64,000 bases of DNA. It comes from an uncultured Planctomycetales bacterium (GTDB lineage: Bacteria > Planctomycetota > MHYJ01 > JACPRB01). The notes beneath the pieces were generated by a model, which saw only the letters and a program-made list of their open reading frames with translations, was not told the origin of the DNA and ran no database searches. The stretch's first letter is position 1. Every line of letters starts with the position of its first letter. A program made the position numbers and the translations under genes. The stretch covers positions 9,599 to 73,598 of the forward strand of contig CAZGKV010000002.1 of the NCBI GenBank assembly GCA_964526305.1, in the 5' to 3' direction. Positions 5,641-38,302 of the stretch are shown here, piece after piece.

Positions 5641-5811
5641 TCACTCCGGCTCGACCGACACCTCGACCGTTCCGTCGCGACGAGATCGAATCCGAACCCG
5701 CCACGGGCGGCAGCACACCGGGCAATCCATCGAGAATTCCCCGTTCTCGACCGCGACGGTACTGGGCTCGCCGCAGTACGGACATACGACTTCGACCTCG
5801 TCGTCGATCAT
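5641..5811 (-). CDS. CPXCG-motif cysteine-rich small protein (56 aa)
   Basis: Not in the ORF track (<60 aa). Minus-strand ATG at 5811 gives MIDDEVEVVCPYCGEPSTVAVENGEFSMDCPVCCRPWRVRIRSRRDGTVEVSVEPE* with stop at 5641-5643. C-P-Y-C-G and C-P-V-C-C pairs are typical of the conserved CPXCG small zinc-ribbon family. Convergent with the upstream gene. Confidence 0.55.
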   Translation of the reverse strand: MIDDEVEVVCPYCGEPSTVAVENGEFSMDCPVCCRPWRVRIRSRRDGTVEVSVEPE

Positions 5812-5834
5812 CCGCTGAAAGTGTACAATAGGGC

Positions 5835-6554: not shown

Positions 6555-6578
6555 GCGGAACGGCCGATACTTCCTACG

Positions 6579-8205: not shown

Positions 8206-8260
8206 GGTAGTGAGTCCGGAGCCCGGAGTCCAGAGCGGCGACCGCCGCTTAGTTGTCGCG

Positions 8261-9022
8261 TCAGCCTTCCTTCGCGTCCTCGCGCGTGCACTTCAGCCGG
8301 AGATGGTAGTGGTTGTCGTGGTCGTTTTTCGTCGTGAAGTACTTCTCGGCGAGCTTGAGATGCTTCTCCAGGTATTCCCGTTCCGCCGGAATCCGCGATT
8401 TCAGCATCCGATCTCGAGCGTACTTGGTCAGGAGATCCTGAACCCACTCGGCCAGGATGATGAAGCGGATGTTCTCGCCGAAATACGGATTGTCGATCAT
8501 CGTGCAGACGAAGGTCCAATTGCGCTCCAGATCGAATCGGAGGTTGCCGGACTTGGCCTTTCCTTCCTTGTCGATGTCGACGATCCGGTTCCCCTGCGAG
8601 CGCCCTTTGTCGTCGCAGATGTAGAATCCGAGGTCGACATCGCGTCCTCCCTGATGGCTGATGTGGGGGCTGAGCTTGCCTCCCTCCTTGTGACCGATGT
8701 CGTACACGTGGAAGGTGCCGTCGGTCCCGTAGCGCTCCGCCATTTCGGCGCCCTGGAGCATCAGACCAAACACCATCTCGTCGGTGCCGAAGTTGGTCTT
8801 TCGGTCGGGATTGGCGACTTTGTAGCCCCAACCCTTCTTGGGCAACTCGGCCGCGTCGCGGAGCGCGGCCCTATTCGGCTCTCCCGTCGAGCAGCTCGGC
8901 GGCTTCGTTTTCCGCATCTGCTCGATCTGGCGGACGACGGCGAGATACTCGGCCGAGACCCGCCGCCTGGGGGTGTCCTGCGCGAAGGTCGCCGCGCAGA
9001 GGAGGGCGATCAGCGATTTCAT
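8261..9022 (-). CDS. mepA: penicillin-insensitive murein endopeptidase (peptidase M74, MepA family)
   Basis: Signal peptide MKSLIALLCAATFA. Metal-binding motifs HQGGRDVDL and HDNHYHLRL characteristic of MepA. Confidence 0.8.
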   Translation of the reverse strand: MKSLIALLCAATFAQDTPRRRVSAEYLAVVRQIEQMRKTKPPSCSTGEPNRAALRDAAELPKKGWGYKVANPDRKTNFGTDEMVFGLMLQGAEMAERYGTDGTFHVYDIGHKEGGKLSPHISHQGGRDVDLGFYICDDKGRSQGNRIVDIDKEGKAKSGNLRFDLERNWTFVCTMIDNPYFGENIRFIILAEWVQDLLTKYARDRMLKSRIPAEREYLEKHLKLAEKYFTTKNDHDNHYHLRLKCTREDAKEG

Positions 9023-9090
9023 GCTTTCTACGTAACGAGGGCGGAGGTTGTAACGTACATTTGGTGTCGAATCAAGAGGGAATATCCACG

Positions 9091-10692
9091 ATGAAACAGC
9101 TCCGCTTCTTCGCGCTCCTCTGGCTCGCTCCGCTCCTCGCCGCCCGCCAAGAACGCGACCCCGTCGTCGAGACGGTGGTCCGGGAGGGACGCGAGAACCC
9201 CAAGGTGATGGAGCACCTGGATCACCTCGTGAACAAGATCGGACCGCGCCTGACCGGTTCCGACAGTCTCACGAAGGCCTGCGAATGGACGCGGGACCAA
9301 TTCAAGAGTTTCGGGATCGAGAACGCCCGGCTCGAGGAGTGGGGGACGTTTCCCGTCGCGTTCAACCGGGGTCCGTGGTCCGGGGAGATGACGGCGCCGG
9401 AGAAGAAGAAGCTGACGTGCGGCACGATGGCCTGGACTCCCGGGACCGACGGGCCGGTCGAAGGCCCGGCCATGCTGGCTCCCGCAGGGTCGGAAGACCT
9501 CAAGGCGGAGTACAAGGGAGCGTGGATCGTGTCCCCGCCCCGACTTTCCGATGCGGTAACCAAGGCGCTGGACGAGGCCGGGGTCGCGGGCTACGTGCGG
9601 GGTTCTCGGAACGAGCTCCTGGTCACCGATGGGAATCATCGAATTCGTTGGGAGAATCTGCCGAAGCGGGTGAACGTGCAGGTGGTCTCGTCCGAGTTCA
9701 AAGATTTGGTCGCGCGACTGGAGAAGGGAGAGTCGGTTCGGCTCCGGTTCGACATCAAGAACGAGTTCAAGCAGGGACCGGTGAAACTGTTCAACGTCAT
9801 CGCCGACATCCCCGGCACGGAGAAGCCGGAGGAGATGGTCATCGTCGGCGGACACATCGATTCCTGGGACGGCGCGACCGGGACGAACGACAACGGCACC
9901 GGCGTGTCGACGACGCTTGAGGCCGCTCGTCTGCTCATGAAGGCGGGAGCGAAGCCGAAAAGGACGATTCGCTTCATGCTTTGGAGCGGGGAGGAGCAGG
10001 GACTCTTGGGATCGGCCGGCTGGATCCAGAAGCACCGGGACGATCTCAAGAACATCTCTTGTGTTCTCGTCCACGACGGCGGCACCAATTACGTGTCCGG
10101 TATCGTCGCGACGAACAAGATGGTGCCGATGTTCGAGAAGGCATTCGCCCCCGCACGGGAGCTGGACGGCGCGATGAAGTTCAAGATCCGAGAGGTCCAG
10201 AGACTTCCCTACGGGATCGGGAGCGATCACGACTCGTTCCTCGGCGCGGGCGTCCCGGGATTCTTCTGGGCGCAGTCGGGCCGGTCGAACTATGTCCACG
10301 TCCATCACACGCAGCACGACACCTACGACTCCGCGATTCCCGAGTACCAGAAGCACTCGGCGGTGGTGATCGCGTTGGGGGCCTGGGGACTCGCCAATGC
10401 GGAGGGCCTGGTGCCTCGCGACGGCCTTCCGACCGGGGGAGGCGGCGGGCACGGCCGAATGCTCGGCGTGAATCTCGACGAGGACGGCGTCACGGTTACC
10501 GGTCTGATGGAGGGGTACCCCGCGGAGAAAGCGGGCATCAAGGTCGGGGACAAGATCGTGAAGGTCGGCGACCGGACAGTCGCCAGCCGTGAGGATCTCA
10601 TCAACGCGATTCGCAAAGCGCCGAAGAAAACGAAGGTCGTCGTTCTGCGAGGGGGGAAGGAGATCTCGGTGGCCGTGGAGTTTACCGAGTAG
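9091..10692 (+). CDS. M28 family Zn aminopeptidase with PA and C-terminal PDZ domain, secreted
   Basis: Signal peptide MKQLRFFALLWLAPLLAA. M28 motifs (VGGHIDSWDGATGTNDNGTGV, WSGEEQGLLGS, GSDHDSF). C-terminal PDZ (GVNLDEDGVTVTGLMEGYPAEKAGIKVGDKIVKVGD). Confidence 0.85.
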   Translation: MKQLRFFALLWLAPLLAARQERDPVVETVVREGRENPKVMEHLDHLVNKIGPRLTGSDSLTKACEWTRDQFKSFGIENARLEEWGTFPVAFNRGPWSGEMTAPEKKKLTCGTMAWTPGTDGPVEGPAMLAPAGSEDLKAEYKGAWIVSPPRLSDAVTKALDEAGVAGYVRGSRNELLVTDGNHRIRWENLPKRVNVQVVSSEFKDLVARLEKGESVRLRFDIKNEFKQGPVKLFNVIADIPGTEKPEEMVIVGGHIDSWDGATGTNDNGTGVSTTLEAARLLMKAGAKPKRTIRFMLWSGEEQGLLGSAGWIQKHRDDLKNISCVLVHDGGTNYVSGIVATNKMVPMFEKAFAPARELDGAMKFKIREVQRLPYGIGSDHDSFLGAGVPGFFWAQSGRSNYVHVHHTQHDTYDSAIPEYQKHSAVVIALGAWGLANAEGLVPRDGLPTGGGGGHGRMLGVNLDEDGVTVTGLMEGYPAEKAGIKVGDKIVKVGDRTVASREDLINAIRKAPKKTKVVVLRGGKEISVAVEFTE

Positions 10693-15218: not shown

Positions 15219-15768
15219 TCTCGCCACGTTGGCCAGGCGCCTGGCCGACGCGCTGGAAGCGGCGGGAGTTCCCTATGCCATAGGCGGTGCGTTGGCCTAT
15301 GGACAGTGGGCGGTTCCCCGCGCCACGGCCGACGTCGACATTACGCTCTTTCTCGACGAACCGGAGTGGCCGAAGGCACTGGATCTTCTCCAGCGGGAGG
15401 GAGTGGAGGGGGACGGTCGGGTCGCCCTCACGGAGCTTCAGGACCGCGGTTCATGCAGATTGAAGGGGGGGGCGTTCTATGTCGATCTGTTCGTCCCGTC
15501 CATTCCCTTCTATTCCGCCGCAAGGAGTCGAATCGTCTTGCGTCCTCTCGTAGGTCGCCCCGCCGGCTTTCTCACCGCGGAAGATCTTTCCGTATTCAAG
15601 ATGCTCTTCTTTCGCCCGAAGGACTTGGTCGACATCCGATACATGCTCGCGGTGCAGGGGGGGGCATTCGATCGATTCTACGTGCGGCATTGGTTGGCCG
15701 AGATGGTCGGCGAGTCCGACGAGCGTGTCCTCCGTTGGGACGAACTATGCCGCGAGGTGCCTGCCTGA
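15199..15768 (+). CDS. Pol-beta superfamily nucleotidyltransferase (AbiEii/MenT/DUF1814-like)
   Basis: hG[GS]x9-13Dh[DE] NTase motif: YAIGGALAYGQWAVPRATADVDITLF. 189 aa. Overlaps the upstream small ORF and overlaps the hemE start by 22 nt. Confidence 0.6.
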   Translation: MPEAPIDLATLARRLADALEAAGVPYAIGGALAYGQWAVPRATADVDITLFLDEPEWPKALDLLQREGVEGDGRVALTELQDRGSCRLKGGAFYVDLFVPSIPFYSAARSRIVLRPLVGRPAGFLTAEDLSVFKMLFFRPKDLVDIRYMLAVQGGAFDRFYVRHWLAEMVGESDERVLRWDELCREVPA

Positions 15769-16787
15769 GCCCAGACGAATCGCGTCTGCTTCGCGCCGCT
15801 CGACGATTGCCGGTGGACCGAACCCCCGTCTGGTTCATGCGCCAGGCGGGCCGTTTCCTGCCGGAGTACCGCGACCTCCGCAAGCGCTACTCGATGCTCG
15901 AACTTTGTACGAACGCGGATCTTGCGGCGCAGGTCACGATGCTTCCGATCCGTCTTCTGCCGGGTCTCGATGCCGCCATCGTCTTCTCGGATCTCCTGCT
16001 GCCGCTTCAGCCGATGGGGCTCGAGATCCGGTTCGCTGCGTCCGAGGGGCCGCAGGTCCTGAATCCGATCGCCCACGAGTCCGATGTCGAGCGCCTGCGT
16101 CCCCTGGAACCCGAGCAGGATCTTCGCCCGGTTCTCGACGCCATTCGGATTCTTCGCCGCGAACTCCAGGTTCCGCTCATCGGTTTCGCGGGCGCGCCGT
16201 TCACCCTCGCGAGTTACGCCATCGAGGGCGGCTCGTCCCGCCATTACCTCAAGACGAAGGGCTTGATGACGAGCCATTCTCCCGTGTGGTCGAGACTCAT
16301 GACCAAGCTGGCGGAGGCTGCGCTTCGCCATCTTCGCGCGCAAATCGAGGCCGGGGCGCAGATGGTCCAGCTCTTCGACAGCTGGGTGGGGGCCTTGGGG
16401 CCCCGCGACTACGAGGAGTTCGTCCTTCCGTATTCGCGAATCGTCTTCGAAGGCCTTCGAGACACCGGTGCTCCCACCATTCACTTCGGGACCGGGACGG
16501 CCTCGCTTCTCGAACTCATGAAGCGGGCCGGTGGGGACGTGATCGGACTGGACTGGCGCGTGAATCTGGCCGAGGCATGGCTGCGCCTTGGAGAGGTCGC
16601 CGTGATGGGGAACCTCGACCCCGCGATGCTTCTGGCTCCCCGGGAGGCGCTCGTGAGTCGGGTGGATTCGATCTTGGATTCGGCGGGGAGGAGGGCCGGA
16701 CACATATTCAACCTGGGGCATGGCGTGCTCCCCGAGACGCCGGTGGAGAATCTCCTGGCCGTCCTTGAGCGGGTCCACTCGCGATGA
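15747..16787 (+). CDS. hemE: uroporphyrinogen decarboxylase
   Basis: DRTPVWFMRQAGRFLPEY signature. Full-length similarity pattern. Start at ATG 15747 rather than the track's 15306 extension, which reads through the previous gene. Confidence 0.9.
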   Translation: MPRGACLSPDESRLLRAARRLPVDRTPVWFMRQAGRFLPEYRDLRKRYSMLELCTNADLAAQVTMLPIRLLPGLDAAIVFSDLLLPLQPMGLEIRFAASEGPQVLNPIAHESDVERLRPLEPEQDLRPVLDAIRILRRELQVPLIGFAGAPFTLASYAIEGGSSRHYLKTKGLMTSHSPVWSRLMTKLAEAALRHLRAQIEAGAQMVQLFDSWVGALGPRDYEEFVLPYSRIVFEGLRDTGAPTIHFGTGTASLLELMKRAGGDVIGLDWRVNLAEAWLRLGEVAVMGNLDPAMLLAPREALVSRVDSILDSAGRRAGHIFNLGHGVLPETPVENLLAVLERVHSR

Positions 16788-17617
16788 AGACGGCGGTTCT
16801 TCTGATGGCGCATGGATCCCCGGACTCCCCGGACCAGATGGAGGAGTACCTCCGGCGGGTGATGGCCCCCCGCGTTCCGAAGCCGGAGTTCGTGGGGGAG
16901 ATGGCGGAGAGATACCGGAAGATCGGCGGCCGGTCACCCCTCCTGGAGATCACTCGCGCCCAGGCTCATGCGCTGGCATCGAGGATCGGCCTGCCGGTCT
17001 ACGTGGGGATGAGGCATTGGCATCCCCTCATCCGGGAGGCGGTGGAGGAAGTTCGGCGCGATGGGGCACGCAAGATCGTCGGACTCGCGCTCGCCCCCCA
17101 GTACTGCCCGGTCAGCGTCGGGGCGTATCACCGCGCCCTCATCGATTCGCGGGAGGATTTGGAGGTGGTGCTTGTCGGCAGTTGGGCGACCGAGCCCGGC
17201 CTCCTCGACTGCTGGGCAGCTCGGTTGCGACCGGGGGCGAACGTCCTGTTCACCGCGCACAGCGTCCCGGTCGATCAGGCGGGTCCATACCCCCAGGAGG
17301 TCCGGGAGACGATTCGCGGGATCCTGGACCGAGTCGAGGTGCGAGCCCATTTCGCCTGGCAGAGCCGGAGTCCCTCTCCGAATCCGTGGTTGGGACCGGA
17401 GATCCAGGAGATTCTCCCCTCCTTGAAGGGGCAAGAGGTGACGGTCGCCCCGATCGGTTTTGTCGCCGAACATGTGGAGACGCTCTACGACCTGGACATT
17501 CTGCACCGGGCGCAGGCGGAGCGGCTCGGGATTCGCTGGAAGCGGGTAGCGATGCCGAACGCCGATCCGATGCTGATCGAGGCGATGGCCTCGGCCTTGA
17601 AGTTTCATCTGAGCTGA
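16784..17617 (+). CDS. hemH: ferrochelatase
   Basis: ATGA overlap with hemE. MAHGSPDSPDQMEEYL, RHWHP, FTAHSVP, GFVAEHVETLYDLDI: ferrochelatase motifs. Confidence 0.9.
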   Translation: MKTAVLLMAHGSPDSPDQMEEYLRRVMAPRVPKPEFVGEMAERYRKIGGRSPLLEITRAQAHALASRIGLPVYVGMRHWHPLIREAVEEVRRDGARKIVGLALAPQYCPVSVGAYHRALIDSREDLEVVLVGSWATEPGLLDCWAARLRPGANVLFTAHSVPVDQAGPYPQEVRETIRGILDRVEVRAHFAWQSRSPSPNPWLGPEIQEILPSLKGQEVTVAPIGFVAEHVETLYDLDILHRAQAERLGIRWKRVAMPNADPMLIEAMASALKFHLS

Positions 17618-17721: not shown

Positions 17722-18414
17722 ATGCAGCTCTCCGTACGCGAAACGGCTCGTCTACTGAAGGTATCCGAAACTACCGTATATAGATGGATTCGCAAGGGGT
17801 CGATCCCGGCCAGCCAAATCAACGACCAAGTTCGGCTCAGCAGGGCTGAGCTGCTCGAATGGGCGTCCTCGCACAATATCCCCGTCTCCCCCGAGATGTT
17901 CCAGGAACCGGAAGGCGCTGACGGCCAAGTCAGTGGCTTGTTCCAGGCGCTGAAGGCGGGGGGAATCCTCTACGGAATCAAGGGAGCGGACAAACCCGCT
18001 GTCCTTCATGGGGTTGTCGCGGCCATCCCGTTTCCCGAGGATATGGACCGCCAGTTCCTTTGCCAAATTTTATTGGCACGGGAGGCACTGGGATCGACCG
18101 CCATCGGGAACGGAATCGCGATCCCACACGTCCGTCATCCGATCGTGATGCAACTGACGGAGCCGATGATTACCCTCTGCTTCCTGCAGCGGGCCATAGA
18201 TTTCGGTGCTCCGGACGGGAAGCCCGTGGACAAGCTATTCATGCTTTTCAGCCCGACGGTCAAACTGCATCTTCAACTTCTGTCCAAGCTCATTTTCCTA
18301 CTTCGAAGTCCGGAGTTCTGGGGCGCCTTGGTGCGAGCGGCGCCGGCTGAGGAGCTCCTATCCATCGTCCAGAGGACGGAGGGCTCGGTCCCGCGCACCG
18401 GCAAGGCCTCCTAG
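17722..18414 (+). CDS. fusion regulator: N-terminal MerR/excisionase-type HTH + C-terminal PTS EIIA(Ntr)/PtsN-like domain
   Basis: HTH: LSVRETARLLKVSETTVYRWIRKGSIPAS. EIIA type-2 domain with the phosphorylatable His context GNGIAIPHVRH. Stop 18414 lies 4 nt before the next gene. Confidence 0.8.
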   Translation: MQLSVRETARLLKVSETTVYRWIRKGSIPASQINDQVRLSRAELLEWASSHNIPVSPEMFQEPEGADGQVSGLFQALKAGGILYGIKGADKPAVLHGVVAAIPFPEDMDRQFLCQILLAREALGSTAIGNGIAIPHVRHPIVMQLTEPMITLCFLQRAIDFGAPDGKPVDKLFMLFSPTVKLHLQLLSKLIFLLRSPEFWGALVRAAPAEELLSIVQRTEGSVPRTGKAS

Positions 18415-18417
18415 GCC

Positions 18418-20415
18418 ATGCCCCTGAGCCTGGTTCTCCTGGCCGCCGGGGCGATGGCGTTCAGCGGCATCCCCGGGCTCCTCTTCCACTGGCGCTCAAG
18501 AATCGGCCAGTGGATTGCAATGGTCTTCGCAGTCGGCGCGGCCGGGGCCGGGCTCATGGGAGCGTTCGGAGGGATCTTCCAGGCTGAGGCGAGTCTCCGC
18601 GTGCCGTGGCCACTCCCTGGCGCAGAACTGAACGTCCGACTCGATGCCTTGAGCGGTTTTTTCCTCGTCCCCATCTTCCTCATCGGAGGCCTGGGCTCAA
18701 TCTATAGCTTGGGGTATTGGAGCCAACAGGATCGGCCTCGGACCGGCAGGCAGGTGCGGTTCTTCTACGGAGTCCTCGTCGCGGGGATGGCGGTCCTCGT
18801 CGTTGCGAAGAACGGCATTCTCTTCCTCTTCGGTTGGGAGGCAATGGCGCTTGCCTCCTTCTTCCTCATTACCGCCGAATCCCACGATCCCGAGGTGCGC
18901 AAAGCGGGATGGCTCTACTTGATGCTGACCCATGTCGGGACGCTTACTCTCTTCGCGGTGTTCGCGCTGCTGCGGAAGGCGACTGGGTCCTTCCTGCTGA
19001 GACCACTCGGGGTCGAAGAGGCCGGACTCGGGACGTTGATGCTCCTGTTCCTCCTCATGCTCATTGGATTCGGCATGAAGGCGGGCTTGATGCCTCTCCA
19101 TGTCTGGCTTCCGAGCGCGCACGCCAGCGCCCCGAGCCACGTTTCCGCCCTCATGTCCGGGGTGGTGATCAAGATGGGCATCTACGGATTGGTTCGATTC
19201 CTGGGGATGATGCCGCAGCCGCCCGTGAGCTGGGGGGCGATCCTCCTGCTCCTGGGGACGATCAGTGGAGTCGTCGGCGTCTTGTTCGCGATCGGACAGC
19301 ACGACCTCAAGCGTCTCTTGGCCTATCACAGCGTCGAGAATGTCGGCATCATCGTCATGGGGTTGGGTGTCGCGATGCTCGGTCGGTCGTTGGGACGACC
19401 GGATTGGGTAATCCTGGGGTTGGCCGGTTGTCTCCTCCATGTTTGGAACCATGGGTTGTTCAAGGCCCTCCTCTTCCTGGGGGCGGGCTCGGTCATTCAC
19501 GCAGTTCATACTCGTGAAATCGATCGGATGGGCGGCTTGGCCAAGTCGATGCCTCGAACCGCACTCCTGTTCTTGATCGGAGCGGTTGCGATTTGCGGGT
19601 TACCTCCCCTCAACGGGTTCGTGAGCGAACTGCTCGTGTACATGGGATTGTTCCGAACGCTGGGCATCGGCGCGGGGCCGTCCTGGGTCCAGGCGGCGCC
19701 GGCCGCTCCCGCATTGGCTCTGATCGGCGCTCTGGCCGTGGCGTGTTTCGTCAAGGTCTTCGGTGCGGTTTTCCTCGGGAGCGCTCGAAGCCACGATGCG
19801 GAGGGCGCCCGCGAGTCTTCCTGGCCTATGGTCGGAGCCATGGGTGTTCTGGCCGTCTGCTGCGTCGCCATCGGGGTGGCGCCCGTCCTCGTGGGGCCTG
19901 TCCTCGACCGAGCCGCTGCGGCATGGACGAATCAGCCGTTACCCGGCGTCGGCTCGCTCGCCCCGTTCCGGCCGCTGACCTTTCTCGGCGTTGGACTCCT
20001 CGGAGCCATCGCGGCGGGGTGGGCGCTTCTCTCTCGTGTCCGCACTTCGGGCGGAGTGGGAACCTGGGATTGCGGATATGCGGCACCGACCGCGAGGATC
20101 CAATACACGTCCTCCTCCTTCGCCGACACGTTGGTGGGCCTGTTCCGCTGGGTGCTGCGTCCGCGCGTCCATCGTCCTCATCTCGAGGGAATCTTCCCCG
20201 GGGGCACCCGATTCGCGAGTCGCGTGGACGACACGGTTCTCGACGGCCTACTGGCGCCGGCGGCGCGCGCGGCCGAGAAGGCCGTCGGGCGTGTGAAGGT
20301 ATTCCAACAGGGGAGTTCGCAGCGATACATCCTGTACGTTCTCGTCGCGCTCGTTGGGCTGCTGCTTTGGTCTTTCCCGCTGGAGCGCCTGTTCCTCAAG
20401 CTTTTTTCGAGGTGA
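18418..20415 (+). CDS. NuoL/MrpA/HyfB-like antiporter-type membrane subunit of hydrogenase-4/Ehr-like complex
   Basis: 665 aa, about 16 TM helices. WLPSAHASAPSHVSALMSGVVIK and HSVENVGIIV motifs typical of NuoL/HyfB proton-translocating subunits. Confidence 0.85.
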   Translation: MPLSLVLLAAGAMAFSGIPGLLFHWRSRIGQWIAMVFAVGAAGAGLMGAFGGIFQAEASLRVPWPLPGAELNVRLDALSGFFLVPIFLIGGLGSIYSLGYWSQQDRPRTGRQVRFFYGVLVAGMAVLVVAKNGILFLFGWEAMALASFFLITAESHDPEVRKAGWLYLMLTHVGTLTLFAVFALLRKATGSFLLRPLGVEEAGLGTLMLLFLLMLIGFGMKAGLMPLHVWLPSAHASAPSHVSALMSGVVIKMGIYGLVRFLGMMPQPPVSWGAILLLLGTISGVVGVLFAIGQHDLKRLLAYHSVENVGIIVMGLGVAMLGRSLGRPDWVILGLAGCLLHVWNHGLFKALLFLGAGSVIHAVHTREIDRMGGLAKSMPRTALLFLIGAVAICGLPPLNGFVSELLVYMGLFRTLGIGAGPSWVQAAPAAPALALIGALAVACFVKVFGAVFLGSARSHDAEGARESSWPMVGAMGVLAVCCVAIGVAPVLVGPVLDRAAAAWTNQPLPGVGSLAPFRPLTFLGVGLLGAIAAGWALLSRVRTSGGVGTWDCGYAAPTARIQYTSSSFADTLVGLFRWVLRPRVHRPHLEGIFPGGTRFASRVDDTVLDGLLAPAARAAEKAVGRVKVFQQGSSQRYILYVLVALVGLLLWSFPLERLFLKLFSR

Positions 20416-20419
20416 GAGG

Positions 20420-21328
20420 GTGGTCGAGAGGATCGTTCACGTCGTCTTGTTCTTGACGATGCCTCCGCTCTTGCTCGGAGTCATCCACAAGACGAAAGCT
20501 CTCTTCGCCGGTCGGGTCGGGCCTCCCGTTCTTCAGCCGTACTTCGATCTCATCAAGTTGATGCGGAAGGGCATGGTGTTGAGCTCGACCACCACCTGGA
20601 TCTTCCGCGCGAGCCCGGTGGTCACGGTGGCGACCGTCCTCCTGGCGGGCCTCCTGATTCCACTCGGTCGATTCGACGCTCCGATCGTATTCGCCGGGGA
20701 TCTGATTCTCTTCGCGTACCTGTTCGCCCTCGCCCGATTCTTCACCACCGCGGCGGCGCTGGACACCGGATCTCCCTTCGAGGGGATGGGAGCGGCGCGG
20801 GAAGTCACCTTCGCCTGCTTCTCGGAACCCGCGCTCTTCTTCGCGCTTCTTTCGCTCGCCAGACTCAGCGGCTCGGTGAGTCTCACGGCCATGCTCCACT
20901 CGGCGCAGTTCGGCGGCGCAGGGCTCTCGAGCGCGGCCCTCCTTCTCGTCGCCGTCGGGCTCTTCCTCTTCCTTCTCTCCGAGAATTGTCGGATACCGGT
21001 GGACGATCCGAACACGCACCTCGAGCTCACGATGATCCACGAGGTCATGGTGCTCGATCACGGCGGGCCCTTGTTCGGGATGATCCTCTACGGGGCGTCG
21101 CTGAAGCTCTTCGTGCTGAGCGCGCTCTTTGTCCACGTGGTGGCCCCCATTCGGACGACTCGTCCTTGGCTCGACACGGGGATCTTCGTCGCCCTCATGA
21201 TCGGCGTGGCCGTGCTGGTGGGAGTCGTCGAGTCGGTGATGGCCCGTCTCCGGATGCGGCACGTGCCGACGCTCCTCATCGCGTCGTGCCTTCTGTGCGG
21301 CTTCGGATTTCTCCTCCTGGTGAGATGA
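20420..21328 (+). CDS. NuoH/HycD/HyfC-like membrane subunit
   Basis: GTG start 5 nt after the previous stop. Multi-TM protein with the NuoH-family region (DPNTHLELTMIHEVMVLDHGGPLFG). Confidence 0.8.
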   Translation: MVERIVHVVLFLTMPPLLLGVIHKTKALFAGRVGPPVLQPYFDLIKLMRKGMVLSSTTTWIFRASPVVTVATVLLAGLLIPLGRFDAPIVFAGDLILFAYLFALARFFTTAAALDTGSPFEGMGAAREVTFACFSEPALFFALLSLARLSGSVSLTAMLHSAQFGGAGLSSAALLLVAVGLFLFLLSENCRIPVDDPNTHLELTMIHEVMVLDHGGPLFGMILYGASLKLFVLSALFVHVVAPIRTTRPWLDTGIFVALMIGVAVLVGVVESVMARLRMRHVPTLLIASCLLCGFGFLLLVR

Positions 21329-21329
21329 C

Positions 21330-21974
21330 ATGCTGACGACGGCGGCCGACGCGATCCTCATCGTGGTTCTCCTGATGAATCTCTTCATGCTGGGGACGAG
21401 TCGGATCAACTCGGTGATCCGGATCGTCGCGGCCCAGGGGGTGGCGCTCGGGGTGATGGCCCTGATCCAGCACGGGGAATTGGGATTGCGGACCGTCCTC
21501 CTCGCCGGTGCGACGATCGCCGTCAAGGGGGCCGTCATTCCCTGGATGCTGACCCGCGCGATGCGTCAGGTGCAGATCAAAAGGGAGGTGGAGCCGCTCG
21601 TCGGCTTGGTACCTTCGATGCTCTTGGGGGCCGCCGGAACGGGTCTGGCCGTGCTCTTCGCGGCGCAGCTTCCCATCGTTCGGGGACACGGCTCGTCGCT
21701 GATCGTGCCCGCTTCGCTCGCAACCGTATTGACCGGATTCGTTCTTCTGACCACGCGGATCAAGGCCATCAGCCAGGTCCTGGGATACCTCGCGCTCGAG
21801 AACGGAATCTTCACCTTCGGTCTCCTGCTCCTCGAGGCGATGCCGTTCTTGGTGGAGATCGGGGCGTTGCTGGATCTCTTCGTGGGCGTCTTCGTGATCA
21901 GCATCATCATCCACCACATCAATCGGGAGTTTGCGACCTTGGATACGCGGAAGCTCTCCACGCTCAAGGACTGA
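21330..21974 (+). CDS. HyfE-like (hydrogenase-4 component E) small membrane subunit
   Basis: 214 aa with 6-7 TM helices, directly abutting the previous gene. Size, hydropathy and position match HyfE of hyf operons. Confidence 0.7.
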   Translation: MLTTAADAILIVVLLMNLFMLGTSRINSVIRIVAAQGVALGVMALIQHGELGLRTVLLAGATIAVKGAVIPWMLTRAMRQVQIKREVEPLVGLVPSMLLGAAGTGLAVLFAAQLPIVRGHGSSLIVPASLATVLTGFVLLTTRIKAISQVLGYLALENGIFTFGLLLLEAMPFLVEIGALLDLFVGVFVISIIIHHINREFATLDTRKLSTLKD

Positions 21975-21978
21975 CGCC

Positions 21979-23412
21979 ATGGCTCTCGCGATGGTTCTCG
22001 CCCCGATGGCGCTGGCGCTCGTCGCCTGGGCCGTTCCCAGCGACCGCCTTCGAGTCTGGGCGCTTCCGCTCGGAGGCGTCGCCCAGATTGCGGCCACGGG
22101 GATCAGTTTGTGGCGTCCCGGCCTTCCCACCGGCGGAAGTTGGCTCGTCCTCGACGCCCCCGGCCGCGTCGTTCTCGTCACGATCAGCGCGCTCTTCTTC
22201 TTGTGCAGCCTGTACGGGGTCGGCTACTTGCGCTACCGGACCGAGAGGCCCAACCGCGTGTTCTGCAGCTGCCTCCTGCTCCTGCTGGGGATCATGAATC
22301 TGGTCGTCTGGTCCCATCATTTGGGGTTGATGTGGGTGGGGATCGAGGCGACGGCCCTGGCTACGGCGCCGCTCCTCTATTTCAATCGGACCCCGCAATC
22401 CATCGAGGCGACGTGGAAGTATCTCCTCGTCGGCTCGGTCGGAATCGCCCTGGCCCTCTTCGGTTCCTACTTCCTGGCGTATTCCTCGCTGCACGCCGGC
22501 CATGCGTCGTCCCTCATGTTCGACGATCTCCTTCGAATCGCTCCGCATCTCTCCAAGCCGTGGCTGCACGTCGCGTTCGTTCTGCTCCTGGTGGGATACG
22601 GGACGAAGATGGGAATCGCGCCGCTCCACACCTGGAAACCCGACGCGTACGGCGAGGCTCCGGGACTCGTGGGCGCGATCTTGGCCGGAGGGGTCACGAA
22701 CTGCGCGTTCCTCTCGCTCCTGCGCGTCTATCGCATCTGCGTCGCGGCGGGGGAGGGACCGTTCGCGGGGCGCATGATGATCTTCCTGGGACTCCTCTCG
22801 ATGGCGGTGGCGGGCGCGTTCATGATCGGGCAACGCGATCTGAAGCGGATGCTCGCCTACTCGAGCGTCGAGCACATGGGGATCCTCACCTTGGGCGTCG
22901 GGATCGGCGGCGGGGCTCTCTTCGGTGCGATGCTCCATCTCGTCAACAACGGAATGACGAAGGGGATCACGTTTCTGGCCGCGGCGAACATCCATCGGGC
23001 CTTCGGGAGTAAGGCCACCGGAGCCGTAGCCGGAGCCATGCGGCGCCTCCCCGTTTCGGGGACCCTCTTCCTGGCCGGATTCCTTGCGATCACCGGGTCG
23101 CCTCCTTTCGGACCGTTCGTGAGCCAGTTCGCGATCTTCAATGGAGCCGTCGCCGGCGGACGCGCCTGGATCGCGTTTCTCTTTCTGGCCTTCCTCGCCG
23201 TGGTGTTCCTGGGGATGGGAACGACGGTGCTGCGGGCGGTGCAGGGACGGCCCTCCGCAGCGGCCATGGCATCGCCATACCGGGATGGAGTCCTCACCAC
23301 GGTTCCCCTGCTCGTTTTCCTCGGGGTCGTTCTGATGTTGGGGGTGTACATTCCCGAACCGTTGCGGCGAATGCTGACGGAGGCGGTGGCCTTCGTGGAG
23401 GGCCGGCCATGA
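21979..23412 (+). CDS. NuoN/NuoM/HyfF-like antiporter-type membrane subunit
   Basis: ATG 21979 starts 5 nt after HyfE stop. WKYLLVGSVGIALALFG, PLHTWKPDAYGEAP, YSSVEHMGILTLGVG: NuoN/HyfF motifs. Confidence 0.85.
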   Translation: MALAMVLAPMALALVAWAVPSDRLRVWALPLGGVAQIAATGISLWRPGLPTGGSWLVLDAPGRVVLVTISALFFLCSLYGVGYLRYRTERPNRVFCSCLLLLLGIMNLVVWSHHLGLMWVGIEATALATAPLLYFNRTPQSIEATWKYLLVGSVGIALALFGSYFLAYSSLHAGHASSLMFDDLLRIAPHLSKPWLHVAFVLLLVGYGTKMGIAPLHTWKPDAYGEAPGLVGAILAGGVTNCAFLSLLRVYRICVAAGEGPFAGRMMIFLGLLSMAVAGAFMIGQRDLKRMLAYSSVEHMGILTLGVGIGGGALFGAMLHLVNNGMTKGITFLAAANIHRAFGSKATGAVAGAMRRLPVSGTLFLAGFLAITGSPPFGPFVSQFAIFNGAVAGGRAWIAFLFLAFLAVVFLGMGTTVLRAVQGRPSAAAMASPYRDGVLTTVPLLVFLGVVLMLGVYIPEPLRRMLTEAVAFVEGRP

Positions 23413-24908
23413 ATCGGTTTCGGCCGATGTTCCCCGGCAAGGCCGTGGAATTGGACGAGGTGCCTCGACTGGGCCTCGCCGAATTTCAGCAGTCGATCGT
23501 CGAGGGGGTGAGCGCGGGGGCGAGGATCTCGGCGCTGTTCGGCGCGGGTTCCCAGGTCGTCACCCTCTACGGCGTCCTGGCGGACGATCCGGAGAGCCGA
23601 CTCCTGGTGGCAAGGAGCGAGGTGGAGGGAGATTCGTTCGAATCCATTACGCCTCGATGCCCCCAAGCGCATCTTTTCGAGCGGGAGATTGCGGAACAAT
23701 TCGGACTGATGCCCCGAGGCCATCCCTGGCTGAAGCCCGTTCGGTTTCATCCTTCCTACCGGCCGGGACACGCCGTCTGGCCGGATCCGACGATCGGCGT
23801 CACCGACTTTTACCGGGTCGAAGGCGAGGAGATCCACGAGGTGGGAGTCGGCCCCGTCCACGCGGGAGTGATCGAGCCGGGGCACTTTCGGTTCCAATGT
23901 CACGGCGAGGAAGTCTTCCACCTGGAGATTTCCCTGGGATACCAGCACCGGGGAGTGGAGCCGGCCCTGGTGGGGGGACCGAACCGCAGAACGATCCACC
24001 TCATGGAAACGACGGCGGGCGACACCACCGTGGGGCACGCGACGGCCTACTGCGAGGTCATGGAAGCCCTGACCCGCTGCCAGAAATCGGCCCGCGCGCA
24101 GGTCCTGAGGGGGATCGCCCTCGAGCTGGAGCGGCTGGCGAATCACGTGGGGGATCTGGGGGCGTTGGCGAACGACGTCGGGTTTCTCCCGACGGCCTCC
24201 TACTGCGGTCGCATTCGGGGCGACTTCCTCAACATGACCGCACTTCTGTGCGGGAGCCGCTTCGGACGGGGATTCCTTCGGCCGGGCGGCGTAGGGTTCG
24301 ACGTGGACGATGTGCGAGTCGGGACGCTCCTGGAGCGGCTGGCCGCGGCGCAGAAGGACACGAGGGTGGCGGTCGATCTGTTGTGGGCGAGCCCCTCGGT
24401 GATGGCACGGTTCGAGGAGACCGGTGCCATACCAAAAGAGGTATGTACACAGTTGGGACTCGTCGGGCCCGCCGCACGGGCGTGCGGCGTCGAATTGGAC
24501 GTGCGTCGCGATCAGCCGTCGGGAATCTACCGGTTCAGTCACATCCCGGTTGCGAGTTGGCCGAGCGGAGATGTGTTCGCGCGGGCGTACGTGCGGTGGC
24601 TCGAGATCGAGCGATCGATCCTCTTCATCCGGGAGCAGCTCAAGGCGCTGCCGTCAGGATCGGTGGGGGTGGATGCCGGGAGTCCGCAGCCCGACCGCAT
24701 CGCGGTCTCGTTGGTGGAGGGATGGCGGGGGGAAATCTGCCATGTTGCGCTGACCGATGCGGAGGGCCGGTTCTTGCGGTACAAGATCGTCGATCCCTCC
24801 TTCCACAACTGGACCGGCCTGGCGTACGCGCTACGAAATCAACAGATCTCCGATTTTCCGCTGTGCAACAAGAGCTTTAATCTCTCGTACTGCGGGCACG
24901 ACCTATGA
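23409..24908 (+). CDS. [NiFe]-hydrogenase large-subunit homolog (fused NuoC-NuoD/HycE-like) that apparently lacks the N-terminal Ni-binding CxxC
   Basis: ATGA overlap. GPVHAGVIEPGHFRF...HRG...TVGHATAY aligns to the HycE GPLHVTSDEPGHFRL...RVCGICGFAHSTAY region (HycE recalled from memory), but with AGDTTVG in place of CGICGFA. C-terminal ISDFPLC...SYCGHD retains one Cys of the DPCxxC L2 motif with aberrant spacing. Confidence 0.8.
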   Translation: MNRFRPMFPGKAVELDEVPRLGLAEFQQSIVEGVSAGARISALFGAGSQVVTLYGVLADDPESRLLVARSEVEGDSFESITPRCPQAHLFEREIAEQFGLMPRGHPWLKPVRFHPSYRPGHAVWPDPTIGVTDFYRVEGEEIHEVGVGPVHAGVIEPGHFRFQCHGEEVFHLEISLGYQHRGVEPALVGGPNRRTIHLMETTAGDTTVGHATAYCEVMEALTRCQKSARAQVLRGIALELERLANHVGDLGALANDVGFLPTASYCGRIRGDFLNMTALLCGSRFGRGFLRPGGVGFDVDDVRVGTLLERLAAAQKDTRVAVDLLWASPSVMARFEETGAIPKEVCTQLGLVGPAARACGVELDVRRDQPSGIYRFSHIPVASWPSGDVFARAYVRWLEIERSILFIREQLKALPSGSVGVDAGSPQPDRIAVSLVEGWRGEICHVALTDAEGRFLRYKIVDPSFHNWTGLAYALRNQQISDFPLCNKSFNLSYCGHDL

Positions 24909-25660
24909 TCGATGTCTTTCTCGCGCGGCTTCAGCAGAAGCACCGGACGATTCCGTTTCCCGGTCACGAGCCGACGCTTCCCGATCTGTTCCGAGGGAGG
25001 CCGGAGATCGACGGCTCGAAGTGTCCCGAGGGGTGTCGCGATTGTGTGGAGGCTTGTCCGACCGGCGCGGTGAAGCTGGAAGGAGGAGTCTCCGTGGATC
25101 TGGGGCGCTGCCTCTTCTGCGCGGAGTGTTCGCGGGCATGTCCGCAGGGGGCGATCACCCATACGCGGGATTATCGGATGGCGACCCGCGCACGCGAGGA
25201 CTTGGTCCTGTCTGGAAAGGCGATGGAGCTGGCGAAGGCCCTCGACGGGAAGATGCGATCGCTCTTCGGGCGATCCCTCAAGCTGCGTCAGGTCAGCGCC
25301 GCAGGTTGCAACGCCTGCGAGGCGGACGTCAACGTCCTGAACACCGTCGTCTTCGACCTCGGGCGATTCGGAATCCAGATCGTCGCTTCGCCACGCCATG
25401 CGGACGGCCTTCTCATCACGGGTCCGGTATCGCGGAACATGAAGCTCGCGCTCGAAAAAACTTACGCCGCGGTCCCGCCTCCCAAGCTCGTGATCGCGGT
25501 GGGGGCATGCGCGATCAGCGGCGGGCCCTTCGTCGATTCCCCCGAGGTCTGCAATGGAGCGGGCGGAATCGTGCCGGTGGATCTCTACATTCCGGGATGC
25601 CCTCCTCATCCGATCACCATTCTCGACGGACTCCTCCGGTTGTTGGGGCGCATCTCATGA
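24905..25660 (+). CDS. fusion of 2x[4Fe-4S] ferredoxin (NuoI/HycF-like) and NuoB/HycG-like hydrogenase small subunit
   Basis: ATGA overlap. CPEGCRDCVEACP and CLFCAECSRACP ferredoxin motifs. Then NuoB-type cluster ligands GCNACE, GACAISGGP, PGCPPHP. Confidence 0.8.
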   Translation: MIDVFLARLQQKHRTIPFPGHEPTLPDLFRGRPEIDGSKCPEGCRDCVEACPTGAVKLEGGVSVDLGRCLFCAECSRACPQGAITHTRDYRMATRAREDLVLSGKAMELAKALDGKMRSLFGRSLKLRQVSAAGCNACEADVNVLNTVVFDLGRFGIQIVASPRHADGLLITGPVSRNMKLALEKTYAAVPPPKLVIAVGACAISGGPFVDSPEVCNGAGGIVPVDLYIPGCPPHPITILDGLLRLLGRIS

Positions 25661-25705: not shown

Positions 25706-26017
25706 ATGTGGCCGTGGATCATCCTGGCGGCCGTATGGGCTGCCGCGGGGTATCAGGCGTGGCACGCGTATCGCCAGGCGCGGATGGCGGAGCCCGCGAA
25801 TCCGCTCGCGGCGATCGCGGCGCGGGTGAAGGTGGGGCTCGGTTTCCTCTGGGCGATCCTCATGCTCTTGGCCGGAGCGATCGCGTCGTTGACGGTGGCC
25901 TCGGCCGAGAAGAATCGCGTCGCCTCCTGGGCGGCCGGGGGGACGATGGCGCTGGCGGTCTTGGGCGGGATGGGAGCGTGGAAGTGGTTCTGGAGGCGTC
26001 GACGAACGGCGTCGTGA
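25706..26017 (+). CDS. small membrane protein, hypothetical (3 TM)
   Basis: 103 aa hydrophobic ORF between the Ehr-like operon and the ion-channel gene. Stop 26017 lies 8 nt before the channel ATG. Confidence 0.4.
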   Translation: MWPWIILAAVWAAAGYQAWHAYRQARMAEPANPLAAIAARVKVGLGFLWAILMLLAGAIASLTVASAEKNRVASWAAGGTMALAVLGGMGAWKWFWRRRRTAS

Positions 26018-26025
26018 CACCGGGA

Positions 26026-26787
26026 ATGGAACTCAAGAACGTCGTAGAATCGAAGTGGTTCCGCACTACGGTGGCGCTGCTCATCGGCCTGAATGCGCTG
26101 GTGGTAGGGGCCGAGACGTATCCCCAAGTTACAAGCCGCTTCGGGAAATGGCTTGAGGCGACCGATCGCATCATTCTCGTCCTCTTCGCGGTGGAACTGG
26201 TGCTTCGGTTCATCGCCACGCCGCCTCGGTATCGGTTTTTCCTCAACGGATGGAATCTCTTCGACATCGTGATCGTGAGTGCCGGATTCGTGCCGGCAAC
26301 CGAATACCTCTCGGTCCTGCGGTTGCTGCGGATCATCCGAATCCTCCGCGCCGTGACGGTGATGCCCCATCTGCAGAAACTGGTCCTGGCGCTCTTGAGG
26401 AGTCTCCCTTCTCTGGGGCACATCGCCTTCCTACTCGGCCTTCTCTTCTTCGCGTTCGGGGCGACGGGTACCTATCTCTTCCGGGACGTGGATCCGAACA
26501 ACTTCGGCTCCCTTCACCGATCGATGCTGACGCTCTTCGGCGTCGTCACGCTGGAGGGATGGGTCAGCGTGATGGAGGGGCTGCTGAAGCACAAACCATG
26601 GGCGTGGCTGTACTTCGTCAGCTTCATCCTCCTCGGAACGTTCATCTCCATGAACCTGTTCGTCGGCGTCCTCGTGAACAACCTCCAATCCGCCGAGGCG
26701 GAAGACAAGGAGGCTCACGACAAGGCCGTACGCGATCGCCTGGCCCGGATCGAAGAGAAACTCGACGCCCTCCTCCCTCCCCGATGA
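26026..26787 (+). CDS. voltage-gated cation channel (NaChBac/NavAb-like single-domain ion transport protein)
   Basis: S4 voltage sensor with Arg every third residue (LSVLRLLRIIRILRAV). Pore/selectivity region FGVVTLEGWVSVM (TLESW-like). 6-TM architecture. ATG 26026 chosen rather than the upstream in-frame 25708. Confidence 0.8.
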   Translation: MELKNVVESKWFRTTVALLIGLNALVVGAETYPQVTSRFGKWLEATDRIILVLFAVELVLRFIATPPRYRFFLNGWNLFDIVIVSAGFVPATEYLSVLRLLRIIRILRAVTVMPHLQKLVLALLRSLPSLGHIAFLLGLLFFAFGATGTYLFRDVDPNNFGSLHRSMLTLFGVVTLEGWVSVMEGLLKHKPWAWLYFVSFILLGTFISMNLFVGVLVNNLQSAEAEDKEAHDKAVRDRLARIEEKLDALLPPR

Positions 26788-37261: not shown

Positions 37262-38302
37262 CTACCGGACGATCTCCAACTCCGGCTGCTCCGACGTCAC
37301 CGCTTCGCCGACAATCCGCGCGTCGCTTACCCCGCGCTCCTGGAGTTTCCGGAGGAGCGCGTCGGCATCCTTGGCCCGCATGGCGATGAGCAGTCCGCCC
37401 GAGGTTTGCGGATCCCAGAACACGGCCTTTTCTTCCTCCGACAGTCCGCCGGCGAATCGAATGGAAGGGCTCGCCATCTTGGCGTTCGACCCCGTGACTC
37501 CTGTCCGGACCCCCTGAGCGATGAGATCGAGCGTCAGCGGGAAACGCGGTATCGCTTCCGCGAAGAACCGGAGAGAAACCCGACTGGCGCGGGCCATGCC
37601 GAGCGCGTGGCCGGAGAGTCCGAATCCGGTGATATCGGTCGCCCCCCGACACTCGAACTCCATCATCGTTTCGCAGGCCACCTTGTTCAGCGTCGCCATG
37701 GCGCGGACGATCGGTTCGAACGCCGCGGGTTCGATGGCTCCGCGCTTCGCCGCCGTGATGTGGACGCCGGTGCCGATGGGTTTCGTCAGGAGGAGTTTGT
37801 CGCCGGCCTTCGCTCCGGAATTCGGGGTATAGCGCCGGGGATGGACAAGGCCGTTCACCGAGAGTCCGTACTTGATTTCCTCGTCCTTGACGGTGTGGCC
37901 TCCGACCAGGAGCGCTCCCGCTTCGTGGATCTTGTCCAGACCGCCCTTGAGGATCTTGCCCAGCGTTTCGATTTCGACGCCCTCCGCCGGGAAGTTGCAC
38001 AGATTCAGAGCGGTGATCGGGCGGCCGCCCATGGCGTATACGTCGCTCAGGGAATTCGCCGCCGCCACCGCGCCGTACCAGTAGGGATCGTCCGTAATCG
38101 GCGTGATGTAGTCGGCGGTGATCACCAGCGCGGTCTCGTCCGACAGCCGATAGATGGCGGCGTCGTCCATGGTGTCGATGCCGACGAGGAGGTTCGCGTC
38201 CTTCCGGGGCTCGATCTGCCGGAACAGGCCCTGTAAGTCCAACGGACTCAGTTTGGCCGCTCAACCCCCGCTTCGAGCGAAGTCGCGGATATCGCACGGC
38301 AT
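37262..38302 (-). CDS. selD: selenide, water dikinase (selenophosphate synthetase) containing in-frame UGA selenocysteine
   Basis: The track ORF (37262..38242) starts at an internal Met. Extending upstream on the minus strand gives ATG(38302) MPCDIRDFARSGG-U(TGA, plus 38261-38263)-AAKLSPLDLQGLFRQ..., matching the SelD N-terminal SHGAG[C/U]GCKISP motif. The rest matches SelD (VGIDTMDDAAIYRL, GGHTVKD, TDITGFGLSGH). Confidence 0.85.

Follow-up and report, generated by a model that had tools for sequence, protein, structure and literature searches.

[quoted passage not shown] They consist of six subunits, with NuoC::NuoD and NuoI::NuoB fusions (PMC6349859, Supplementary Note 4), and have been described for Margulisbacteria, Geobacter and Nitrospira (PMC6349859, PMC7894505, PMC10284858). 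In Geobacter, Ehr is induced under formate (PMC7894505). A proteomics supplement, which gives names only, lists EhrS of Geobacter sulfurreducens as GSU0745; the number GSU0744 falls between ehrL and ehrS. Ehr is reported as phylogenetically close to group 4f (Ehf in HydDB), for which six-gene clusters with a regulator have been reported (ehfA-F; ACL22288-93). One six-gene cluster of Methylocystis, classed as group 4f, is induced by acid stress (bioRxiv 2025.08.29.672306).

In all solved structures of complex I, FHL, MBH and NDH, the NuoI-type ferredoxin and the NuoB-type small subunit form two distinct chains, which agrees with the original prediction that these parts are normally separate. 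In complex I, NuoI and NuoB (Nqo9 and Nqo6) have the same folds as the two halves of the protein studied here and carry the three-cluster chain N6a, N6b and N2 beside the NuoD and NuoH homologues. The best solved relatives of both halves are from E. coli FHL-1/Hyf (HycF and HycG, HyfH and HyfI; 7z0s_F/G) and Pyrococcus MBH (MbhN and MbhJ; 6cfw_N/J). These enzymes have two separate polypeptides and a large subunit with [NiFe] cysteines, unlike the system described below. Hyq of Azorhizobium and Rhizobium (hyqRBCEFGI) has the same gene order as found here, including the small upstream HTH regulator.

The fused gene was analysed in a 64-kb stretch of DNA (the window). It is the last gene of a six-gene operon in hyf order, after HyfB-, HyfC/NuoH-, HyfE-, HyfF-like and NuoC::NuoD genes (Table 1). 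Judged from its sequence and gene context, it very likely encodes the EhrS-type small subunit of a six-subunit, membrane-bound, complex-I-like Ehr complex and arose by merger of hyfH/hycF-like and hyfI/hycG-like genes.

Table 1. Coordinates of the operon, its putative regulator and the parts of the fused gene in the window.
Feature	Coordinates	Strand	Basis or remarks
Putative operon regulator, HTH_17 + PTS EIIA(Ntr)-like domain	17722..18414	+	Pfam; NCBIfam PtsN-like
HyfB-like antiporter-type membrane subunit (NuoL family, 665 aa)	18418..20415	+	NCBIfam hydrogenase 4 subunit B, E=1e-175; Pfam Proton_antipo_M
HyfC/NuoH-like membrane subunit	20420..21328	+	Pfam NADHdh; NCBIfam NuoH; start as called in locus L001
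HyfE-like small membrane subunit	21330..21974	+	NCBIfam PRK11492 hydrogenase 4 membrane subunit, E=1e-17, 8-213 of 214 aa
HyfF-like antiporter-type membrane subunit (NuoM/N family)	21979..23412	+	Pfam Proton_antipo_M; NCBIfam hydrogenase 4 subunit F, E=6e-95; start as in locus L001
EhrL-type large subunit, NuoC::NuoD fusion, 499 aa	23409..24908	+	Pfam Complex1_30kDa + Complex1_49kDa
Probable EhrS-type small subunit, HycF/NuoI-like ferredoxin fused to HycG/NuoB-like subunit	24905..25660	+	Single ORF, 251 aa plus stop
Ferredoxin domain, residues 1-86	24905..25162	+	NuoI/HycF-type N-terminal segment + two [4Fe-4S] motifs
Linker, residues 87-132	25163..25300	+	Predicted helix 106-116, then invariant FGRSLKLRxVS strand into NuoB fold
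NuoB/HycG/MbhJ-type domain, residues 133-251	25301..25657	+	C135, C138, C202, C232 for predicted N2-like [4Fe-4S] cluster

The gene order B-C-E-F-G-(H::I) is retained in about 35 loci from many phyla, and at least 10 other loci, representing several phyla, have a homologue of the HTH-EIIA regulator directly upstream of the operon. The membrane module is made of HyfB and HyfF (Mrp-antiporter-like), a NuoH homologue and HyfE. The nuoB homologue includes the coding sequence of a NuoI homologue, and the nuoD gene that of NuoC. When compared with the published Ehr complexes (PMC6349859, PMC7894505, PMC10284858), the operon showed no architectural difference. An FDH/NuoEF partner has been proposed for the Margulisbacteria Ehr; no such electron-input module was found among the scanned ORFs of the 64-kb window. 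The last three genes are in the same order as in FHL-1/Hyf, whereas HycB/HyfA, HyfD and the maturation genes of that system are absent here. Compared with complex I, the operon has no N-module and no NuoA/J/K set, and none of nuoA/E/F/G/J/K was found with it.

The start of the fused gene overlaps the stop of the preceding large-subunit gene (ATGA at 24905-24908), and the frame runs uninterrupted to the stop codon at 25658-25660. Pfam placed 4Fe-4S dicluster domains at residues 33-86 and Oxidored_q6 (NuoB) at 135-245 (E=4.6e-28). The NCBIfam models HycF, HyfH and NuoI matched residues 1-105 (E=8e-17 to 3e-12), and the NuoB model matched residues 132-250 (E=9e-34). ORF, Pfam and NCBIfam thus all bear out the central claim of the original prediction, a single polypeptide joining a NuoI/HycF-type ferredoxin to a NuoB/HycG-type small subunit. 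The best PDB matches were MbhN/HycF for residues 6-111 and MbhJ/HycG for 117-249, and the MbhJ and HycG alignments begin at residues 117-119. No PDB chain matching both halves was found by sequence or Foldseek searches. The AF2 model is of moderate confidence (pLDDT 75), with low values at residues 11-30 and in the linker (116-122). Its top Foldseek matches in the PDB, 7z0s_G and 6cfw_J, cover the NuoB half only (TMq about 0.5) and are therefore uninformative on the domain arrangement.

All 12 expected cysteine ligands are present and are invariant or nearly so in 64 close homologues. The original prediction had described two CxxCxxCxxxCP motifs. This is correct for the second motif (C69, C72, C75, C79-P80); the first is one residue longer, C40-x3-C44-x2-C47-x3-C51-P52 (Cx3Cx2Cx3CP), and this spacing is kept in 64 of 64 aligned close homologues. 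The motifs GCNACE (134-139), GACAISGGP (200-208) and PGCPP (230-234) follow in the same ORF, as had been stated, and C135-x2-C138, C202 and C232 are invariant in the 64 homologues. The first pair of the proximal cluster is a CxxC, as in the small subunits of group 4 hydrogenases. Complex I, by comparison, has separate nuoB and nuoI genes and a tandem CC in NuoB, whereas here GCNACE lies in one ORF with the ferredoxin. Across lineages, C79 is lost together with C40, C44 and C47, and C51 is kept with C69, C72 and C75, which is the pattern expected of a ligand-swapped 2x[4Fe-4S] ferredoxin.

One or both ferredoxin clusters are lost in some lineages (L025, L006, Desulfobacterales), so in these the relay is incomplete. 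This observation, together with the generic nature of the Pfam Fer4-type matches, would suit a domain that is a generic bacterial ferredoxin, gained independently of HycF/HyfH/NuoI and perhaps having a role in sensing or assembly. Such an origin is very improbable. The best full-domain matches of this half are HycF, HyfH, NuoI, MbhN and NdhI, and the match covers positions 5-111 of 180 in the HycF profile, including the cluster-free N-terminal ~35 residues. Moreover, the fused gene stands exactly at the position of hyfH plus hyfI. In Azospirillum, whose hyf is canonical, this position is taken by H and I as two neighbouring genes, and tblastn detected no separate HycF-like gene in the syntenic operons.

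As canonical hyf/hyc operons have the hycF-like and hycG-like genes side by side on one strand, one indel might in principle fuse them, and the original prediction had allowed for a frameshift or sequencing error hiding a stop and a start between the two domains. We rejected such an artefact, whose likelihood is negligible. Four independent assemblies (two from JGI samples, one from ENA and one from a Logan run) encode the 251-aa protein with 100% identity. The length of the protein and both Pfam domains are common to the best 120 database relatives, and conservation extends through the junction (residues 87-132), where F121-S131 hardly varies in homologue alignments. RefSeq records of cultured strains also hold the fused gene, which is found on plasmids of Variovorax, Burkholderia and Allomeiothermus. 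Cultured carriers include Desulfogranum marinum DSM 2058, Variovorax sp. PBL-E5 and Burkholderia cenocepacia. In addition, MbhN and MbhJ together exceed the fused protein by ~55 aa, a difference that points to an old, trimmed fusion.

The fusion is widespread. It is present in 38 of the 38 syntenic genome loci examined (from a listing of 80 loci, which does not include Geobacter). The carriers comprise at least 38 species genomes, which belong to more than 15 bacterial lineages. Among the 150 top-ranking representatives of 50%-identity clusters, about 30 stand for clusters of the full-length fused form, which also speaks against an artefact. The architecture has been deposited thousands of times. 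Ehr occurs very widely: in Planctomycetota including the anammox Kuenenia, Verrucomicrobiota, Desulfobacterota, Acidobacteriota, Spirochaetota, Melainabacteria and others. Five partial N-terminal matches (L054, L061, L066, L069 and L074) were considered as fusions and rejected as complex I NuoB with the CC motif; L054, L061 and L066 also have the ordinary nuo gene order. Member names in 10 diverse representative clusters are generic, e.g. 'NADH:ubiquinone oxidoreductase'.

The original prediction had also allowed that it would be refuted if some known hydrogenase family proved to have the fusion as a rule. This is what we found, for a known hydrogenase-related family, since every syntenic locus examined has the fusion and PMC6349859 states it for Ehr. 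The NuoI::NuoB fusion is already known as the usual form of the Ehr small subunit. The fusion itself is therefore little of a discovery, being a standard architecture stated in the literature.

To place the large subunit, we aligned it to HycE (7z0s_E). None of the four [NiFe] cysteines is retained: C241, C244, C531 and C534 of HycE correspond to A203, T206, S493 and G496. The same four cysteines are missing in the large subunits of 35 syntenic loci. Instead of the L1 motif RxCGxCxxxH and the L2 motif DPCxxCxxH/R, the large subunit reads TAGDTTVGH and NLSYCGHDL. This loss, which the original prediction had overlooked, makes the complex an Ehr complex and not a canonical hydrogenase. It also sets the operon apart from the group 4f [NiFe]-hydrogenases, as the L1 and L2 cysteines are what defines a [NiFe] hydrogenase. 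The tyrosine of the complex I quinone site is not conserved either, as G204 aligns with Nqo4 Y87. The signature AGD(T/S)...FPLCNKSFNLSYCGHDL of the large subunit recurs in syntenic loci and in rhizobial HyqG.

Several observations would suit a working H2-metabolising enzyme of group 4f/Hyq type (an 'endo-hydrogenase'), in which the fused subunit would be a genuine hydrogenase small subunit that supplies or drains an unconventional H2 site. Hyq shares the gene order, HyqG is 35% identical to the large subunit here and both have the TxGD(T/S) and FPLCNKSFN.SY.GHDL signatures. Deletion of the Azorhizobium operon shifts H2 evolution about tenfold (PMC3357923, PMC2650096). Furthermore, the six-gene 'group 4f' clusters of Methylocystis and Desulfitobacterium are reported as hydrogenases, and two loci, L042 (Chloroflexia) and L043 (Gemmatimonadales), combine a fused small subunit with intact [NiFe] ligands (CGVC...C(Y)xCTDR). 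However, with all four cysteines replaced here, we consider an H2 enzyme improbable. The Hyq authors themselves rate the Ni-Fe site as 'uncertain, if not unlikely', and no isolated Cys-less enzyme is known to act as a hydrogenase. No hyp or hycI/hycH maturation genes were found among the scanned ORFs of the 64-kb window, although this is a weak test, as such genes may lie elsewhere in the genome (compare the hyf of Azospirillum).

The fused protein also differs from the Hyq small subunit. HyqI is 52% identical to it in the small-subunit core, but is only ~170-177 aa long (177 aa in the protein compared), has its CxxC at 55/58, lacks a ferredoxin domain and aligns only from residue 102. The fused protein, of 251 aa, has a complete ferredoxin domain and its CxxC at 135/138. 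The Hyq regulator has 129 aa and, by its size, no EIIA domain; the regulator here has an EIIA-like domain.

For the Ehr complex, we propose that the operon kept the hyf/hyc order while the adjacent hyfH/hycF-like and hyfI/hycG-like genes merged into one reading frame. The merger would have cost the ferredoxin its C-terminal ~70 residues and the small subunit its N-terminal ~20-30 residues; compared with the fused protein, HycF has ~70 extra C-terminal and HycG ~30 extra N-terminal residues. Three [4Fe-4S] clusters are predicted in line within the polypeptide. The distal cluster would be N6a-like, bound by C40, C44 and C47 plus C79. The middle cluster (C69, C72 and C75 plus C51) would be N6b-like, and the proximal cluster (C135, C138, C202 and C232) would be N2-like. 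If all three are occupied, electrons may pass, in a direction that we can only infer, between a cytoplasmic partner (presumably ferredoxin or a dehydrogenase module) and a pocket of the NuoC::NuoD-type large subunit at the membrane interface. Through its HyfB- and HyfF-like antiporter subunits, the complex may couple turnover to ion transport.

The fusion had been said to wire the distal relay directly to the N2-like cluster. This is overstated. In the unfused enzymes the same three clusters already lie side by side; joining the two parts thus adds a covalent tether but no new path for electrons. Most likely, the fusion keeps the ferredoxin module docked and at 1:1 stoichiometry in what is a minimal complex.

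The pocket itself allows a more speculative suggestion, which we hold to be rather unlikely. The wire of three clusters may serve a site of catalysis or sensing within the large subunit that is neither NiFe nor quinone, built from the residues that replace the [NiFe] ligands and hardly vary across phyla (AGD(T/S) at 203-206 and FPLCNKSFNLSYCGHDL at the C-terminus, with C486, C495 and H497). If so, the redox reaction of Ehr would be of a kind new to the complex I superfamily, and wherever a lineage has lost the distal cluster, this would point to a switch of electron donor.

As a subtype marker, the fusion holds in part. It tracks one operon type; however, the rhizobial Hyq small subunit is without the ferredoxin domain, and L042 and L043 are fused with intact [NiFe] ligands. 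A fused Fer4 + Oxidored_q6 gene beside a NuoC::NuoD gene ending in ...FPLCNKSFNLSYCGHDL allows quick recognition of an Ehr operon and helps to avoid its mislabelling as complex I, FHL or [NiFe]-hydrogenase.

Elsewhere in the window, the AIRS-family gene at 37262-38239 was considered as HypE and rejected; it is SelD.

The fused gene is a single unbroken ORF, the sixth and last gene of an operon whose gene order is that of hyf/hyc. Its start codon shares bases with the stop of the gene 5′ to it (ATGA), and the same start/stop overlap occurs one gene earlier (23409-23412). Overlap at two consecutive junctions suggests that these genes may be translationally coupled.

Features of the operon and its surroundings in the window
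Feature	Position	Strand	Remark
hemE (URO-D) and hemH (ferrochelatase)	15306-17617		haem biosynthesis; immediately 5′ of regulator
HTH_17 + PTS-EIIA(Ntr)-like regulator	17722-18414		5′ of six-gene operon
HyfB-like subunit	18418-20415		E=1e-175
NuoH/HyfC-like subunit	20420-21328		
HyfE-like subunit	21330-21974		
HyfF-like subunit	21979-23412		
NuoC::NuoD-type large subunit	23409-24908		
Fused gene	24905..25660	+	251 aa
Hydrophobic ORF	25706-26017		103 aa; directly 3′ of operon
Voltage-gated-type ion channel gene	25708-26787		Pfam Ion_trans, PKD_channel; directly 3′ of operon
SelD (selenide, water dikinase) gene	37262-38239		~12 kb downstream

Pfam placed 4Fe-4S dicluster domains at residues 33-86 of the fused protein and the NuoB family (Oxidored_q6) at residues 135-245 (E=4.6e-28). 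NCBIfam matched residues 1-105 to HycF (formate hydrogenlyase iron-sulfur subunit, E=8e-17), NuoI (1e-14) and HyfH (3e-12), with matches extending over the cluster-free N-terminal ~35 residues, and residues 132-250 to NuoB (E=9e-34). With both halves identified in one 251-aa ORF, the fusion of a ferredoxin to a NuoB-type small subunit proposed in the original prediction is real. The best PDB matches were MbhJ (6cfw_J) and HycG (7z0s_G) for residues 117-249; residues 6-111 matched MbhN (6cfw_N) and HycF (7z0s_F). For the NuoB half, a Foldseek search with the AF2 model was consistent with these matches. The motif strings quoted in the prediction are present, but the first ferredoxin motif is C40-x3-C44-x2-C47-x3-C51-P, that is Cx3Cx2Cx3CP and not CxxCxxCxxxCP; only the second (C69/C72/C75/C79-P) is canonical. 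The uncommon spacing was kept in 64/64 close homologues aligned, in which the junction region F121-S131 is also nearly invariant.

A frameshift or assembly error, which could have created the fusion, was ruled out by the identical protein on contigs of four independent assemblies (two JGI metagenomes, one ENA assembly and one Logan run) and by relatives that share the architecture. In a search of 5.8 billion proteins, the best 120 of at least 8000 scored candidates were all ~245-274 aa long, 69-85% identical and carried both Pfam domains. Their source annotations read "4Fe-4S dicluster domain-containing protein", "NuoB" or "Ni,Fe-hydrogenase III small subunit/ferredoxin". When 1.84 billion cluster representatives were searched exhaustively with HMMER, 338 clusters reached E<=1e-30, and ~30 of the top 150 were full-length fused proteins (36-63% identity).

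The two parts are normally separate, as had been stated. None of the solved PDB chains matches both halves, and in Azospirillum lipoferum, whose hyf operon is canonical, the ferredoxin (hyfH) and the small subunit (hyfI) have a gene each, side by side at the position of the fused gene. Because these genes adjoin there, the simplest origin would be in-situ fusion of neighbouring hyfH/hyfI-like genes with trimming. The fused protein aligns with only positions 17-108 of the 180-aa HycF, and with HycG only from residue 32.

When one genome per species (GTDB) was scanned, the fused gene was present in at least 38 loci (38 of the 80 listed). Their source lineages are Planctomycetia including Candidatus Kuenenia, Leptospiraceae, Chlamydiota, Acidobacteriota, Riflebacteria, Verrucomicrobiota, Lentisphaerota, Desulfovibrio, Desulfobacterales including cultured Desulfogranum marinum DSM 2058, Ignavibacteriales, Spirochaetota, Rhodocyclaceae, Archangiaceae, Gastranaerophilales, Firmicutes, Chloroflexia and Gemmatimonadales. 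Plasmids of cultured Variovorax sp. PBL-E5, Allomeiothermus silvanus DSM 9946 and Burkholderia cenocepacia/multivorans carry it in the same operon. By tblastn with the window proteins as queries, essentially all fused-gene loci have the order B-C-E-F-G-(H::I). Plasmid 3 of PBL-E5 (locus L005) has two paralogous hyf-like/Ehr-like operons ~3.4 kb apart; the first (2388-9672) closes with the fused gene, and the second (13084 onward) runs past the locus end.

Aligned to E. coli HycE, the window large subunit has all four [NiFe] cysteines replaced (C241→A203, C244→T206, C531→S493, C534→G496), so the complex is not a canonical hydrogenase. The residue aligned with the quinone-site Tyr of complex I (Nqo4 Y87) is G204. 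The Cys-less signature, xAGD(T/S)xxxH plus a strikingly conserved C-terminus ISDFPLCNKSFNLSYCGHDL, was found in the adjacent large subunit of 35 loci. Residues 200-215 (xAGD(T/S)xxGH) and 480-499 are the conserved stretches. Together, the replacement residues and the Gly for Tyr look like a conserved putative site. The residues replacing the [NiFe] ligands are almost invariant across phyla despite only 40-68% overall identity.

The same composition has been published for the energy-converting hydrogenase-related (Ehr) complex. Matheus Carnevali et al. (Suppl. Note 4, PMC6349859) reported that the NuoB-homologous gene of Ehr also encodes the NuoI homologue and the NuoD gene also NuoC, the other subunits being HyfB, HyfF, NuoH and HyfE. 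Since this is exactly the composition of the window operon, the fusion is nothing special: it has been described before and is the usual state in Ehr operons, a known family. The structural interpretation in the prediction was essentially right. In Geobacter sulfurreducens, ehrL is GSU0743 and ehrS is GSU0745 (PMC7894505, supplementary file 2); the unnamed GSU0744 between them may encode a ferredoxin of its own, or a fused gene may have been split in annotation.

The rhizobial Hyq operon (hyqRBCEFGI) matches the window operon in gene order, and its large subunit is 35% identical to that of the window with the same signatures (TSGDSTVAY; FPLCNKSFNCSYSGHDL). However, its small subunit is only 177 aa and, unlike the window protein, lacks the ferredoxin domain; it aligns only from residue 102 of the fused protein (52% identity). 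Hyq is an exception to fusion within the family.

Two loci, L042 (a Chloroflexia MAG) and L043 (a Gemmatimonadales MAG), combine a fused small subunit with intact [NiFe] ligands, ERxCGVC...ELCYxCTDR (genes at about 7700-9830 in each locus). Both lack part of the ligand set of the distal ferredoxin cluster. In contrast, Campylobacter Hyf loci have intact [NiFe] ligands and unfused genes. The fusion therefore appears to mark a clade that includes, besides Ehr, at least some hydrogenases whose [NiFe] ligands are intact. As the subtype marker it was proposed to be, it tracks Ehr operons, but Hyq and these two loci depart from the rule. The two loci may help to tell whether the fusion arose before or after the metal site was lost. 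Ehr has been reported to be close to group 4f [NiFe]-hydrogenases, for which six-gene clusters have been reported.

All 12 cysteines are present in the window fused protein. Lineage-specific loss of cluster ligands was seen in L023, L024 and L030-L034 (Victivallaceae and Desulfobacterales, including Desulfogranum marinum), L025 and L006. In Desulfobacterales, L023 (Victivallaceae) and L043, C40/C44/C47 are lost together with C79, and C51 and C69/C72/C75 are kept. L025 has both ferredoxin clusters deleted, and in Allomeiothermus silvanus (L006) the four NuoB-type Cys are also lost. In a classical 2x[4Fe-4S] ferredoxin, the fourth ligand of each cluster comes from the other motif. The loss pattern, coordinated across lineages, is as expected for such a ferredoxin and supports a putative three-cluster wire. 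By homology with Nqo9, the retained cluster is presumably N6b, next to N2, and the lost one the distal N6a.

Electrons would pass from a donor through the distal and middle clusters to the N2-like cluster, and would finally reach the pocket of the large subunit, where this borders on the NuoH-like subunit. The HyfB- and HyfF-like subunits would couple turnover to the translocation of ions. Covalent linkage would add no new electron path; its probable benefit is assured stoichiometry and docking in a minimal complex. The scanned ORFs of the 64-kb window included none for FDH, NuoEF, hyp or hycI.

The HTH-EIIA regulator lies directly upstream of the operon in the window and also in ten or more loci of other phyla (L009, L014, L016-L020, L025, L035, L036, L044). 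In rhizobial Hyq its place is taken by an HTH protein of only 129 aa. The HTH_17 domain is excisionase/MerR-like and the EIIA domain PtsN-like. An operon-adjacent regulator with these two domains suggests that control may be phosphorylation-dependent. The hydrophobic ORF and the ion channel gene 3′ of the operon are also on the identical contigs, and were not found beside the operon in other loci. Two haem biosynthesis genes adjoin the regulator on its 5′ side. Farther downstream, the SelD gene makes selenium use by the source organism probable.
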